Source: a virus
Reading direction: 5' to 3' (one strand)
Virus record (IMG/VR): IMGVR_UViG_3300024999_000044
Location: 1-64,000 of that record
Length of the DNA: 64,000 nt
Shown: positions 39,222 through 43,340 of the stretch, piece by piece
How the letters are laid out: each line of letters opens with the position of its first letter
Numbering within the stretch: position 1 is the first letter of the stretch
Translations under genes and position numbers: made by a program
The notes under the pieces: model-generated
What the model was told of the DNA's origin: nothing
The model's database searches: none
Seen by the model: only the letters and a program-made list of their open reading frames with translations

Positions 39222-39340
39222 GTACCAACAGGGTCCTGATGTATGGCAGGGCGGGATAGGTGTTCTAGCTAGGCGGAGGCTTCAATTAATAAAGGTATGC
39301 ATGTAGCTAGGTGGGGACTACCAATATGGTCGCTAGACAG

Positions 39341-39369
39341 GCTAGCTAGGCGGGGGCTTCATCTAATGG
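39341..39369. repeat. promoter-upstream repeat GCTAGCTAGGCGGGGGCTTCATCTAATGG, which contains the 12-bp palindrome GCCTAGCTAGGC
   Basis: A second copy at 39265-39290 and a degenerate one at about 39304. Confidence 0.6.
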
Positions 39370-39430
39370 AGCATGCGGGTGTTCATCTATAGAACATAAC
39401 TAGGAACATCCTACCTGTAAAAGTGCATAA

Positions 39431-39460
39431 AGAAAGGGTGGCGTTAGCCACCCTGGATGT
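39431..39460 (-). terminator. rho-independent terminator, minus strand
   Basis: Reverse complement reads GGGTGGC-taac-GCCACCC followed by TTTCTTTAT. Confidence 0.55.
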
Positions 39461-39461
39461 A

Positions 39462-39827
39462 TTACAACCAATTTATTAATCCACCTTCCACACACTGTTG
39501 TACCACGTGATTAAATGTGTCCTCATCTATCTTAGAGCTAGTGGTAAAGGGTGTATCATAGTAGAATACTGGACACTTATCCTCATCGAGGGTGCATGTC
39601 CATGTGGATATCTCCGGGTCATAATCATCTATATCACCATCTGGTCCATCTGTAGGGGTCTGTTCGATGATACACCAATGTGTAGCTATCTGGAACTCAT
39701 CATCACCATACTCATTCTCATCAACCAACTTAACCTTATCTGCAGGGTGAATAGGCACAACCACGTGTTTATGATAGATATTCTCGTCAGATGCCTGTAG
39801 GTCACGGATGATGTCGTACTTAGTCAT
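39462..39827 (-). CDS. acidic hypothetical protein
   Basis: Start at MTKYDIIRDL with AGGAGGTATGAGTATATG, inside track ORF 39462-39962. Confidence 0.5.
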   Translation of the reverse strand: MTKYDIIRDLQASDENIYHKHVVVPIHPADKVKLVDENEYGDDEFQIATHWCIIEQTPTDGPDGDIDDYDPEISTWTCTLDEDKCPVFYYDTPFTTSSKIDEDTFNHVVQQCVEGGLINWL

Positions 39828-39879
39828 ATACTCATACCTCCTATATCTAGCAGAGGATCTACACCACCCCATGTACACA

Positions 39880-40356
39880 CTAGATATTACTGGAGTAGTC
39901 ACGATCCTGTAATATACTGAACCAGGTATCCTCACTAGGCCATTCACGCCACCCATCCTCAATATCTATCACCGTATCAATATCACCCAGCCACTCTAAT
40001 GCCCTACCCACACATACATCCTGTAGCATTGGCCCCCCTCCAAATACCTCATCAATACCCTCTGTATCTAGGCATTCTAGAGTATTATCCTCGTGTAATA
40101 TGGCGGGTAGCACCTGCCCCATGATATTACCAGTGTAGGTCTCTCCTGTCTCATCATCGTCTGTAGTCCACACTAAGTACAACTCATGTGTGTACCCATT
40201 CATAATGTAGTCATAGTCACGAGCGTGCTCACTACGGTCAGCCTTACGTACTGACATTGCTATCACCCTACCATTATCATCCCACCCTAGATTATCGAAG
40301 AATGTGTTCACTACTGTAGCTACCTCACCCACACTACTATACTTACTCATACTCAT
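39880..40356 (-). CDS. acidic hypothetical protein
   Basis: Track ORF; AGGAGG RBS. Confidence 0.5.
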   Translation of the reverse strand: MSMSKYSSVGEVATVVNTFFDNLGWDDNGRVIAMSVRKADRSEHARDYDYIMNGYTHELYLVWTTDDDETGETYTGNIMGQVLPAILHEDNTLECLDTEGIDEVFGGGPMLQDVCVGRALEWLGDIDTVIDIEDGWREWPSEDTWFSILQDRDYSSNI

Positions 40357-40415
40357 ACCTCCTATATTCTAGCCAGGGTATCTACCCACCAGAGTAGCTC
40401 CTCAACCGATGATTA

Positions 40416-40444
40416 ATTATATCACGGATCAGAGAAAAAGTCAA
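40416..40444 (-). promoter_or_regulatory. sigma-A-type promoter, family copy, minus strand
   Basis: Reverse complement reads GTGTACTTGACTTTTTCTCTGATCCGTGATATAAT. Confidence 0.7.
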
Positions 40445-40486
40445 GTACACCCACCCCCCCGCCCTAGCCCACCGGACGCTACGCGC

Positions 40487-40515
40487 CCTAGCTAGGCAGA
40501 GGCTTCATCTAATGC
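40487..40515. repeat. promoter-upstream repeat CCCTAGCTAGGCAGAGGCTTCATCTAATG
   Basis: It shares an extended stretch of about 50 nt (ACCGGACGCTACGCGYCCTA…) with the copy at 42501-42548. Confidence 0.6.
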
Positions 40516-40565
40516 ACTAGGAAATGGGCACAAAAATAGGGAGTGCTTACACACCCCCACGTTAT

Positions 40566-40880
40566 CTACCTATTATCTGGCACCCCTATCCGCCCTATCC
40601 TGCTCAGTATGGACCCCTTACCCTTAGGGGTGGTACCCATTAGTCTCTGATACATGGCTGAACGTGTTACACCTGCATCTTTAGCTATCACTGATATACG
40701 TTCACCTGATATGAATCGCTCCACCATACGCACCTGCTCATCAGTATACCCATTCACCCAATCAGAGTGTTCTCTAGTTATATCTGCATAACGCTCACGT
40801 GCCCTATCTATCTTAGATGCCTTCACTAGCATACCTCCTGTAATGGAGAGTACATGACTCTCACACACTGATATAGTCAT
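40566..40880 (-). CDS. small HTH DNA-binding protein, sigma-70 region-4-like
   Basis: EQVRMVERFISGERISVIAKDAGVTRSAMYQRLM. Confidence 0.5.
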   Translation of the reverse strand: MTISVCESHVLSITGGMLVKASKIDRARERYADITREHSDWVNGYTDEQVRMVERFISGERISVIAKDAGVTRSAMYQRLMGTTPKGKGSILSRIGRIGVPDNR

Positions 40881-40910
40881 TCACTACCTCCTGACTCATC
40901 CTCTACTTGG

Positions 40911-41168
40911 TCATGCCTCTCGTTCCAGGTACCCAATAAGCCCATCCACATATTTATCATCAGGCATATAGTAGGTACCCCTCTTCATATGGTCAGTCCA
41001 TTCAAATTTGTCTAGTATGCCCCCATTACGCTCTACCCACACATGGGAATACCTTTCACCATCAGGACCAATGGCAGTGCCATAAGCGAGTTCACCACCA
41101 TTAGTATACGCCTCTACGGCATGGGTGTCATAGCAATTTAGGCCGAATACTGACCATACCTTAGACAT
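40911..41168 (-). CDS. hypothetical protein
   Basis: Track ORF. Confidence 0.45.
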   Translation of the reverse strand: MSKVWSVFGLNCYDTHAVEAYTNGGELAYGTAIGPDGERYSHVWVERNGGILDKFEWTDHMKRGTYYMPDDKYVDGLIGYLEREA

Positions 41169-41221
41169 ACATACACTCCCTCAATCTGAAGTAGGGGTGG
41201 TCACCCACCCCACCATATACT

Positions 41222-41740: not shown

Positions 41741-41769
41741 ATTATATCACGGAACAGGGAAAAAGTCAA
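41741..41769 (-). promoter_or_regulatory. sigma-A-type promoter, family copy, minus strand
   Basis: Reverse complement reads GGTACTTGACTTTTTCCCTGTTCCGTGATATAAT. Confidence 0.7.
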
Positions 41770-41811
41770 GTACCAGTAGGGTCCTGGCATATGGCAGACA
41801 CGGGTAGGTGT

Positions 41812-41890
41812 GATACCTAGGCGGGGCCTTCATCTAATGGGAATGTGCAGGGTGATATGTGGTGTAGCTAGGTGGAGGCTTCATCTAATG
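41812..41890. repeat. two promoter-upstream repeats: GATACCTAGGCGGGGCCTTCATCTAATGG and GTGTAGCTAGGTGGAGGCTTCATCTAATGG
   Basis: Read directly. Confidence 0.6.
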
Positions 41891-41952
41891 GCCCGTTAAC
41901 GGGCATAAGAAAAGGGAGGCTCACGCCTCCCCAACATTAACACCATTGACCG

Positions 41953-42156
41953 CTACCACCCTGCCCCATCGAAGTATTGCTTCCAGTGGCTATACCCACC
42001 ACGTATATCACACTCAAGCATCTCTATGTCCCACCCACCATCCGCTAGCCAGCTCCAATCTGCGTAGACAACTTTACCAGTCACCTGTGTTCCTTGGGCT
42101 TCTATAGTCACTGTGTCACCCTCATTCACTACTGTACCCTTTTTGTCCTTTGCCAT
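41953..42156 (-). CDS. hypothetical small protein
   Basis: Track ORF. Confidence 0.45.
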   Translation of the reverse strand: MAKDKKGTVVNEGDTVTIEAQGTQVTGKVVYADWSWLADGGWDIEMLECDIRGGYSHWKQYFDGAGW

Positions 42157-42201
42157 ATAATAACCTCCTCCAAAAGTAGGGGGCCGTAGCCCCCTGTACC
42201 C

Positions 42202-42378
42202 CTAGTCCTCGTTGTCAACCTTGTCCACACCAAAGCACCCAACACTAGCTAATGCTTCGTTGAACTCGTACCCTAGCTCGTTCAAGTACCCGTTCAGTTG
42301 CTCAGCTTGGTTGAAGTCGTTTAGACGTGCCACTAACTCCTGCAGTACCTTTAGAGTTTCACTGGTTGTTTCAAGCAT
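42202..42378 (-). CDS. small protein, 58 aa, missing from the track
   Basis: MLETTSETLKVLQELVARLNDFNQAEQLNGYLNELGYEF…; AAGGAGG RBS. Confidence 0.35.
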   Translation of the reverse strand: MLETTSETLKVLQELVARLNDFNQAEQLNGYLNELGYEFNEALASVGCFGVDKVDNED

Positions 42379-42445
42379 CGTACGTACCTCCTTGCCTAGC
42401 TAGGGTGGTCTCCACCGCTCTCGTGTGCCCCCTGCTGACACTCTA

Positions 42446-42474
42446 AGTTTCTCACGAAACAGAGAAAAAGTCAA
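42446..42474 (-). promoter_or_regulatory. sigma-A-type promoter, family copy, weak -10 GAAACT
   Basis: Reverse complement reads CCGTACTTGACTTTTTCTCTGTTTCGTGAGAAACT. Confidence 0.5.
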
Positions 42475-42516
42475 GTACGGTTACGGGTGTGCGCTAGCCT
42501 ACCGGACGCTACGCGT

Positions 42517-42548
42517 CCTACCTAGGCGGGGGGCTTCATCTTTAGTGG
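42517..42548. repeat. promoter-upstream repeat CCTACCTAGGCGGGGGGCTTCATCTTTAGTGG
   Basis: Read directly. Confidence 0.55.
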
Positions 42549-42720
42549 ACACACCAATGGACATAGAAAAGGCCCACCCTCAGGTGGACCTACTCATGTA
42601 TTTACGCACATTATGCACCACTATATTCACTAACACACCTGCTAGGAAGCACTGTAACAATGCCATATGCACTCACTCCTTCATTTAAGTAGTAGGGGCC
42701 CGTAGGCCCCCTACTCATAT

Positions 42721-43113
42721 TTACTCTGCCACATACCCGGTAGCCTTGATAGCCATGATCACTCTCATCCGCAAGATGGCCTCATGGTCACTGAAGTCAT
42801 ATACGGCGTTCCGCTCGGTAGCGATCATCAGCAGGTCCTCAATAGTGAACTGTTTCCAGCCAGCAGCTTTCTTAGACTTACTAGGGGCCTTAGGAAAGTG
42901 TAGGTACAATATAGCCATGCACATCCTCATTCTATTGATGGCTAGGTTGTCGTCACAAGGATTCCAGGTAAGGCCTTCTAGCTTAATCCATTCCCGTAAC
43001 TGATCATCAGATAGCTTCTTATATACCTTCTTTAGGTCCTTATCTATCTTGAATGTCCCTACTTCAGGGTACACCACTGCTGATACCTTGACCACTGGTT
43101 GTTTCTTTGCCAT
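42721..43113 (-). CDS. paralog family member C
   Basis: Start at MAKKQPVVKVSAVVYPEVGTFKIDKDL…, preceded by GCAGGAGGTATGGGTATATG. Confidence 0.6.
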   Translation of the reverse strand: MAKKQPVVKVSAVVYPEVGTFKIDKDLKKVYKKLSDDQLREWIKLEGLTWNPCDDNLAINRMRMCMAILYLHFPKAPSKSKKAAGWKQFTIEDLLMIATERNAVYDFSDHEAILRMRVIMAIKATGYVAE

Positions 43114-43186
43114 ATACCCATACCTCCTGCATCTAGCACCGGGATCTCCAGCACCCGTCTGGTGTGTGTCCCCTGCTGATGTTATT

Positions 43187-43215
43187 ATTATATCACGGAC
43201 ATAGGAATAAGTCAA
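43187..43215 (-). promoter_or_regulatory. sigma-A-type promoter, family copy, minus strand
   Basis: Reverse complement reads TGTACTTGACTTATTCCTATGTCCGTGATATAAT. Confidence 0.7.
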
Positions 43216-43256
43216 GTACAGAAAGTACCCTGTGGTATGCGTGTGGGGTGGTATGT

Positions 43257-43340
43257 GATGTAGCTAGAGGAACGCTTCATATATTGGGGGATGGTGGAAT
43301 GGTAGGTGGAGTAGCTAGGGGGACCCTTCATCTAAATAAG
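43257..43340. repeat. two degenerate promoter-upstream repeats: TGTAGCTAGAGGAACGCTTCATATATTGG and GAGTAGCTAGGGGGACCCTTCATCTAAATAAG
   Basis: Read directly. Confidence 0.5.

Follow-up and report, generated by a model that had tools for sequence, protein, structure and literature searches.

The stretch of DNA considered here comprises positions 1 to 64,000 of the IMG/VR virus record IMGVR_UViG_3300024999_000044 (64,000 nucleotides (nt), referred to below as the window), and the subject of this report is an oriented repeat of ~36–38 nt that recurs upstream of strong leftward promoters in its early region. The helicase-like open reading frame (ORF) at 12518–15769 shares ~54% protein identity with the UvrD-type helicases of Bacillus phages CP-51, JL, and SPO1, a megablast comparison of the region with 50,697 phage records yielded no nucleotide match, and the 134-amino-acid protein encoded at 41222–41626 is also present on groundwater metagenome contigs; the window phage is therefore a distant SPO1-like myovirus. 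The segment at 38.7–43.3 kb is a leftward early arm of small minus-strand genes, each furnished with a sigma-A promoter and an intrinsic terminator. The early promoters are near-consensus (GTACTTGACTTTTTC, then TG-N-TATAAT), and five of them on the minus strand are of concern here: the promoter at 39193–39221 (TTGACT, 17 nt, TG-N-TAAAAT) drives the gp51-like paralogue 38739–39122; that at 40416–40444 drives 39880–40356 and 39462–39836; that at 41741–41769 drives the gp51-like paralogue 41222–41626 and the genes following it; that at 42446–42474 drives 42202–42378 and 41953–42156; and the outermost, at 43187–43215, drives the gp51-like paralogue 42721–43113. The three paralogous genes belong to PHROG family 9647 and Pfam family PF26856 (Phage_SPO1_gp51) and match SPO1 gp51, gp50, and the C-terminal half of gp44; together with their upstream regions, they are evidently duplicated units (repeat-finder groups D1, D2, D4, D5, and D7). 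The arm is the equivalent of the SPO1 host-takeover module, which sits in a 13.2-kb terminal redundancy and comprises two convergent gene arms.

On the promoter (minus) strand, the consensus of the element is CATTAGATGAAG-N8-CTAGCTA-N2-CC-N-C-N-TA, divided into three blocks referred to as A (TTTA-N-ATGAAG), B (CTA-NN-TA), and C (CC-N-C-N-TA). An earlier note, made from the letters of this DNA alone, had described a repeat of 25–30 nt; its copies were recovered where it had placed them, far above chance, in exact-pattern, repeat-finder, and matrix searches, and the length required revision, as the third block extends beyond TAGCTA. Briefly, the consensus of that note gave four matches within three mismatches (0.00 expected), the repeat finder assembled seven copies into one group (D3), and a position weight matrix built from element copies and applied at a threshold of 15 bits gave 10 matches against 0.03 expected in Markov-resampled windows. 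The copies in the window are confined to 32.4–43.5 kb, and the remaining segments at 1–31 kb and 44–64 kb hold only two sub-threshold matches of 12–14 bits, which is chance level.

All copies described in the following lie on the minus strand, and two types of upstream region are distinguished. The three paralogue genes have two to three copies each, spaced 51 or ~38 nt apart. Upstream of the outermost promoter, a distal copy at 43300–43337 (ATTTAGATGAAGGGTCCCCCTAGCTACTCCACCTACCA; 40.4 bits), which is kept in the related loci L018 and L020, is paired with a proximal copy at 43249–43286 (37.6 bits) ending 33 nt before the −35 hexamer, and a weak third copy of 15–17 bits follows at 43427–43464, the orthologue of which in L018 and L020 matches better (TTTATATGAAAG...CTTAGATAG). 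The paralogue 41222–41626, which like 42721–43113 has at least two upstream copies, is preceded by a distal copy at 41853–41890 (41.3 bits) and a proximal copy at 41802–41839 (37.0 bits, ending 32 nt before the −35 hexamer), 51 nt apart from start to start. The paralogue 38739–39122 has three upstream copies, of which two are scored by the matrix, namely the distal one at 39331–39368 (37.4 bits) and the proximal one at 39254–39291 (34.3 bits; ATTGAAG for GATGAAG; ending 32 nt before the −35 hexamer); the degenerate middle copy at 39294–39329 (CCATATTGGTAGTCCCCACCTAGCTACATGCATACC), read from the sequence, has kept blocks B and C and lost the GAA, and it is conserved in L018, L019, and L020. The other two promoters have a single copy combined with a small palindrome, GGACGC-TAC-GCGTCC, that overlaps block C. 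The copy of this second type at 42508–42545, found in the matrix scan, carries a 1-nt insertion and is fused to the palindrome (42504–42518), and that at 40477–40514 (34.1 bits) is accompanied by the near-palindrome GGACGC-TAC-GCGCCC at 40474–40488 and ends 32 nt before the −35 hexamer. The stretch of ~50 nt that had been reported as common to the 40470 and 42501 regions is present there, with 42 nt at 86% identity (40461–40502 and 42491–42532; group D8). The interval of 39265–43340 originally assigned to the repeat holds the strong copies, whereas weaker ones lie outside it: beyond that at 43427–43464, a copy of 24–31 bits occupies 35101–35138, between the stop codon of the gene at 35147–35929 and its terminator, where the arms converge, and a weak copy of 22 bits at 32439–32476 is located within the plus-strand gene arm, yet on the minus strand.

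In the co-oriented gene arm, the distance of the element from the promoter takes discrete values. In the five cases, the element lies between the terminator of the upstream gene and the next −35 hexamer, as had been noted, although it does not accompany every minus-strand promoter of the family, the promoters at 36727–36755 and 38369–38397 being devoid of it; in total, five of the 13 same-family promoters in the window carry it. The proximal copy ends 32–33 nt before the −35 hexamer at all five of these promoters and at 13 more in L018 and L020, and this spacing is constant even though the intervening sequence is not the same in the two types of upstream region. The element therefore spans approximately −69 to −106. 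Extra copies are located 51 nt farther upstream, and tandem copies are generally 49–53 nt apart. Discrete spacings to the −35 hexamer, of 44–48 or 54–57 nt, are found in other lineages, and one or more co-oriented copies lie in the 400 nt upstream of 27 of the 35 gp51-family genes in representative loci.

The element is conserved well beyond the close relatives of the window phage. The repeat finder detected the same motif in Exiguobacterium phage vB_EalM-132 (Eal), with internal spacing identical to that of the window copies; the matrix identified exactly five copies in each genome or contig of the CP-51, JL, or Shanette type; and of the 51 metagenome loci that the paralogue profile recovered, 47 carry the element (179 matches in 224 kb). 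Among 197 distinct copies, A5, G9A10A11, T21A22, T25A26, and T34A35 are invariant, and C29, C30, and C32 are conserved at 84–88%, figures that are somewhat on the high side, since the matrix was used to choose the copies; the flanks hold no information. Across the lineages (window, Eal, CP-51/JL-like phages, and metagenome loci), the spacing inside the element is identical and the flanks are unalignable, and in L018 and L020, which share 76–84% nucleotide identity with the window phage, the blocks are kept and the spacers between copies have drifted. Within the CP-51 group, flanks and element are equally conserved, so that phylogenetic footprinting gave no information there. Absence from related phages had been named in the earlier note as a ground on which the proposal would be dismissed; it is retained in close and distant relatives alike, and that objection therefore falls away. 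The window-specific consensus had 0 matches in IMG/VR by exact-pattern search, a scan with a pan-lineage core gave CP-51-like contigs only, plus single chance matches, and a search of genome contigs with the paralogue profile gave no match. SPO1 itself returned no matrix match; it carries five compressed tandem variants (TAGTTTTGAATGAAGGG...) at 13232–13363, which is 47–180 bp past the right edge of its terminal redundancy (13185) and upstream of its outermost leftward early promoter. JL (L002) has, at the corresponding position on the outer margin of its leftward early arm, a different repeat, ATATCGTATTATTCGTATAT, in four copies (6512–6701).

Two further properties concern the chromosome as a whole. 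The Eal record contains both terminal repeats (14,539 bp each) with 14 copies per repeat, and its 116 kb of unique DNA holds no copy of 15 bits or above. Furthermore, the copies share a single strand, in the window (12/12), in Eal (14/14, eight of which lie in the opposite gene arm), and in CP-51-like phages (5/5, three of which lie in the opposite arm), and likewise in L031, L043, and L049; only L036 and L037 are mixed, with one good copy (33 bits, 1433–1470) on the strand opposite to that of its neighbours. The orientation does not follow transcription in Eal, CP-51-like phages, L031, or L043, in both convergent arms, which distinguishes the element from stoperators. It does not behave as an iteron, the copies being spread over ~10 kb at intervals of 0.5–2.5 kb with no tight cluster, nor as a Chi or FtsK-orienting polar sequence (KOPS), with which it shares the uniform orientation but not the length (~36 rather than 5–8 nt) or the distribution, being confined to the terminal repeat. 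Regarding the genome ends, no full copy in Eal lies closer than ~3 kb to the right end or 1.2 kb to the left end; each repeat has one further occurrence of the B/C core TAGACCCCCT, inverted and 63 nt from the right repeat end, and SPO1 has TATAGACCCCTCCCCCC 40 nt from the right end of its terminal repeat. In the window, a search for the ends of the repeat gave no convincing match to the end motif GTCCCGCCCC or to the boundary motif ATAGACCCCCTCCCCC, both of which are common to SPO1 and Eal. Two sequences are shared around 13145–13450 of SPO1 and positions 14476 and 1–11 of the Eal record: the left-end sequence (T)GTCCCGCCCC and a C-rich motif, ATAGACCCC(C)TCCCCCC, which lies 40–63 nt inside the right terminal-repeat end in both phages; SPO1 has a second copy of the C-rich motif 250 nt past the end, and its two copies bracket the five tandem repeats. 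These shared left-end and C-rich sequences are possible end-recognition signals.

Several classes of element were considered and rejected. A structured RNA is ruled out by the lack of any Rfam match at E up to 1 and by single-strand folding without excess (z-scores of −1.5 to +0.8); the element acts as duplex DNA and not as RNA. A mobile repeat of the repetitive extragenic palindromic or miniature inverted-repeat type does not agree with the absence of a significant hairpin or terminal inverted repeats, and blocks B and C, inspected by eye, exhibit no compensatory variation. A six-codon mini-ORF starting at the ATG of ATGAAG was dismissed because the reading frames differ among the copies.

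A promoter-linked cis-element that binds a protein, which was the core of the earlier proposal, stays the best reading, whereas the arguments from symmetry, from a named regulator, and from an UP element fail. The reading tentatively preferred here, with a confidence somewhat short of even, is that the element is an oriented site at which a conserved phage protein that binds or bends DNA would dock and act on early promoters. The existence and limits of the element, its conservation, its confinement to the early region, its constant distance from the −35 hexamer, and its single orientation are observed; binding by a protein, the identity of that protein, and the consequence for transcription are inferred. 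Such a protein would assemble just upstream of the five strong sigma-A early promoters, with the proximal site at approximately −69 to −106 and further sites 51 bp (approximately five helical turns) upstream, and, once bound, would modulate these promoters. Promoter control is suggested as the most likely consequence by the fixed position and the 51-bp arrays upstream of the five promoters, and shut-off or insulation once phage proteins accumulate would be the most plausible form of it because of SPO1 genetics, genes 44, 50, and 51 of SPO1 being required for the early-to-middle switch (PMC8208478).

Two candidates for the binder lead: an HU homologue of the TF1 type, and the gp44/gp51 family, whose genes lie among the sites. 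Proteins of the HU/IHF type introduce two kinks into DNA, 9 bp apart, and the members with long sites occupy 35–37 bp (PMC2475624). In the element of ~36 bp, T25A26 and T34A35 are 9 bp apart, which fits an HU/IHF/TF1-type site in both length and step spacing. TF1 homologues were found in SPO1 and JL by tblastn, and the Eal record annotates one (EalM132_00122). In the SPO1 terminal redundancy, TF1 favours sites close to early promoters, and twin steps of hydroxymethyluracil and adenine mark these sites. The other leading candidate, gp44, combines an Xis-like N-terminal DNA-binding domain with an acidic RNA-polymerase-binding segment (PMC8208478), and a full-length homologue is encoded in the window at 22175–22912 on the plus strand, which aligns from gp44 residue 5 across the whole length, covering the Xis-like N-terminal region, the central acidic region, and the gp51-like C-terminal domain. 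The gp51-like paralogues are candidate binders or partners, and a third candidate binder is the gp36.2-like protein encoded at 31414–32079, which has homologues in 18 related loci, with SPO1, Eal, and CP-51-like phages all represented.

A considerable number of observations weigh against a docking site of this kind. Eight of the 13 same-family promoters in the window (two on the minus strand and six on the plus strand) are devoid of the element, and no clean universal helical phase emerges across lineages, with peaks at 37, 52–53, and 61 nt from T34; the Rayleigh p-values for phasing are inflated because the copies are not independent. As one strand is used in both arms, the element is inverted relative to the promoter in the opposite arm, where it still occupies the gaps between terminator and promoter, at 5–140 nt from the −35 hexamer. 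An orientation that is uniform irrespective of gene direction would not be expected of a role centred on the promoter alone; any complex formed would be polar relative to the chromosome and not to the promoter, and this genome-fixed polarity is left unaccounted for. Regarding the binders, a search of the 72 kb at hand (the window and 8 kb upstream) for an HU/TF1 gene found none, and the syntenic TF1 position, upstream of polA, falls just outside them. The N-terminal domain of gp44 (residues 1–55) bound DNA non-specifically, and its gp51-like C-terminal domain was reported as unstructured by nuclear magnetic resonance (PMC8208478). The N-terminal domain is equally conserved in SPO1, and its conservation thus does not correlate with the presence of the element, which speaks against gp44 in particular; more generally, SPO1 possesses TF1, gp44, and gp51 but lacks the canonical element.

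The polarity is the starting point of a possible, though rather unlikely, explanation in which the element is a chromosome-level signal of the terminal repeat, read by a directional DNA machine and not by RNA polymerase at the adjacent promoter. The machine might be the terminase at end formation, the ejection or entry apparatus, or the machinery of end-recombination or replication, and the placement between terminator and promoter would arise merely because those gaps are the sole non-coding spaces. The orientation maintained whatever the gene direction, the strict confinement to the terminal repeat in the one complete genome with both repeats (Eal), the five tandem variants adjoining the repeat boundary as the only related copies in SPO1, and the inverted B/C half-site TAGACCCCCT situated 40–63 nt from the right repeat end in SPO1 and Eal all agree with it. 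It sits less well with copies dispersed 0.5–2.5 kb apart instead of being grouped at a cut site, it does not explain the fixed spacing of 32–33 nt to the −35 hexamer in two unrelated upstream contexts, the terminal-repeat boundaries of the window phage were not located by motif search, and the match to a small terminase is weak. The docking-site and polar-signal readings are not mutually exclusive. A combined form, by analogy with KOPS and Chi but phage-specific and much longer, would be an array that orients the chromosome and is read directionally by a translocating or end-processing machine, with early-promoter control as a second use of the same complex; this carries a slightly lower probability than the polar signal by itself. 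Another proposal, judged improbable, assigns the element to a host factor that would activate or organise the strong early promoters before any phage protein is made, as Fis does at rRNA promoters. Eleven positions invariant across lineages with different hosts (Bacillus, Exiguobacterium, and unknown) would suit a conserved host protein, early promoters have to fire on naked incoming DNA, and sites at approximately −70 to −160, in phase at 51-bp steps, have the expected geometry. However, in a comparison by eye, the invariant positions fitted neither the consensus sequences of the transcription factors CcpA, Spo0A, CodY, AbrB, LexA, and DnaA nor those of the sigma factors B, D, E, F, G, H, K, and W, so that Bacillus transcription-factor sites and host alternative-sigma promoters were set aside; moreover, equally good consensus promoters in the window and the early promoters of SPO1 do without the element, and a uniform genomic orientation would be unexpected.

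The explanation originally offered in the earlier note, a palindromic operator for a dimeric helix-turn-helix (HTH) regulator encoded at 40566, 23467, or 17733, or else an UP/enhancer-like element, is largely refuted and is regarded as very doubtful. The element does lie upstream of promoters, some copies contain CTAGCTAG, and the protein encoded at 23467–23853 is a true HTH_3 family member. Nevertheless, the perfect 12-bp palindrome GCCTAGCTAGGC on which the operator was founded occurs nowhere in the window, where its nearest matches have one or two mismatches and only CTAGCTAG, or once CCTAGCTAGG, is symmetric in the copies; this symmetry is not kept across copies or lineages, and the invariant positions in the 197-copy logo form an asymmetric three-part site. 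The protein encoded at 40566–40880 has a weak, below-threshold HTH_7 match and no homologue in the 67 related element-carrying loci, and the orientation is independent of the promoter. An UP element can likewise be dismissed: such an element is A/T-rich, occupies approximately −40 to −60, and abuts the −35 hexamer, whereas the repeat is GC-rich and lies too far away, ~69–106 nt upstream of the start site and more than 30 nt upstream of the −35 hexamer. If the opposite strand is read instead, TAGGGGG, ~17 nt, and TTCATTTAAA could constitute a promoter recognised by a phage sigma factor of the gp28 or gp33/34 type. The SPO1 middle-promoter consensus is AGGAGA, 17–18 nt, and TTT-N-TTT, to which this arrangement bears a loose resemblance, and its uniform direction would be rightward, as is the bulk of phage transcription. 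A phage-sigma promoter is considered highly improbable and was rejected because the element does not occur in any middle or late gene region (the 116 kb of Eal unique DNA and 1–31 and 44–64 kb of the window), that is, outside the terminal repeat, and the invariant TA steps fall between the putative hexamers. Finally, a neutral relic of the segmental duplication of gene-plus-promoter cassettes, or a selfish mini-repeat, is disfavoured and is given only a minimal chance. The three paralogues and their upstream regions are clearly duplicated units; the element, however, is also found upstream of non-paralogous genes, is conserved with 11 invariant positions across lineages with unalignable flanks, is kept in the opposite arm without the promoter, and exhibits neither a hairpin nor terminal inverted repeats.

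The element may be compared with several known systems. TF1/IHF-type sites are likewise ~35–37 bp long and asymmetric, with deformable TA steps 9 bp apart to which T25A26/T34A35 correspond, and they too are associated with the early region of SPO1-type phages, TF1 homologues being present in JL and Eal; they differ in that a two-kink model leaves the invariant GAA, A5, and the third TA step unexplained, in that a uniform genomic orientation is no known feature of such sites, and in that the canonical element is missing from SPO1 itself. The stoperators of cluster A mycobacteriophages (L5 repressor sites) are 13–14 bp long and their orientation tracks transcription in each arm. They resemble the element in being many dispersed, asymmetric copies in short intergenic phage gaps with an orientation rule, whereas the element is ~36 bp long, has one genomic orientation in both arms, and is found in the terminal repeat only. 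Arrays of Fis, IHF, or activator sites, as at rrnB P1, are similarly located at approximately −70, −120, and beyond at strong sigma-70-type promoters with whole-turn spacing (51 bp); their sequence is unrelated, and the element is oriented with the genome and missing from many equally strong promoters of this phage. No Fis or IHF is known in Bacilli. The R sites of lambda cosB, the pacL/pacR boxes of SPP1, and the injection-stop repeats of T5 are also repeated, oriented protein sites tied to genome ends, but they are clustered within a few hundred bp of the cut or stop, whereas the element extends over ~10 kb and is positioned relative to promoters. The lambda Xis sites X1, X1.5, and X2 are arranged head-to-tail with a period of ~12–13 bp and are bound by a small winged-helix protein, to which the Xis-like N-terminal domain of gp44 may be compared; X2 contains TATGTAG, which may be likened to block B in some lineages. 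This parallel is limited by the non-specific binding of gp44 (1–55) and by the equal conservation of that domain in SPO1, which does without the element.

The surroundings of the element present additional features. The leaders of ~110 nt from promoter to start codon (41627–41740 on the minus strand, and those downstream of 39193 and 43187) are nearly invariant among relatives that are ~20% divergent elsewhere, and the motif AACATCAGCAGGGGACAC directly follows the −10 hexamer in several early leaders; these could represent a structured 5′ untranslated region or a processing site. In the low-GC stretch at 32–34 kb, the plus-strand ORF 33128–33973 shows a LAGLIDADG-like motif (YWLGFIYGNGSL) together with a match to a PHROG endonuclease family; as the related loci hold no homologue of it, it is likely a mobile homing endonuclease inserted into the early region. 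The homologues of gp36.1 and gp36.2 (31153–32079, plus strand) are located ~9 kb downstream of the gp44 homologue, whereas the SPO1 terminal redundancy begins with these genes at its left end, ahead of gp44; the early region of the window phage is therefore rearranged relative to that of SPO1. Outside this region, only residues 461–1073 of the 1083-amino-acid plus-strand product of 12518–15769 align with the UvrD-like helicases of relatives, and the first ~460 residues are an extension or fusion. The 832-amino-acid protein encoded at 9691–12189 (plus strand) contains a major-vault-protein shoulder domain (PF11978) and a faint Vault_3 match, which is unusual in a phage. A small minus-strand gene at ~47195–47404, mapped from L068 4223–4432, belongs to the Acb2/Tad1 hairpin family (PF24729) and may encode a sponge that captures the cyclic-nucleotide signals of defence systems.

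Repeats with a regulatory or architectural role are already known from the early regions of phages; the present element is distinct in that it is conserved in many lineages, strictly limited to the terminal repeat, and uniform in its genomic orientation. No description of it was found in the searchable literature, which does not extend to the older subscription-journal papers on SPO1. The SPO1-like phages (Herelleviridae) have long served as models of host takeover, yet the cis-logic of their terminal-repeat early module is poorly defined past promoters and terminators. The element is a conserved hallmark of this host-takeover region in SPO1-like phages and gives a handle on the shut-off of early transcription and on the targets of gp44, gp50, gp51, or TF1, as well as on the recognition and processing of long terminal repeats. 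Furthermore, it is a practical marker, as a simple matrix scan suffices to find and orient the host-takeover region on fragmentary metagenome contigs from this group of phages.

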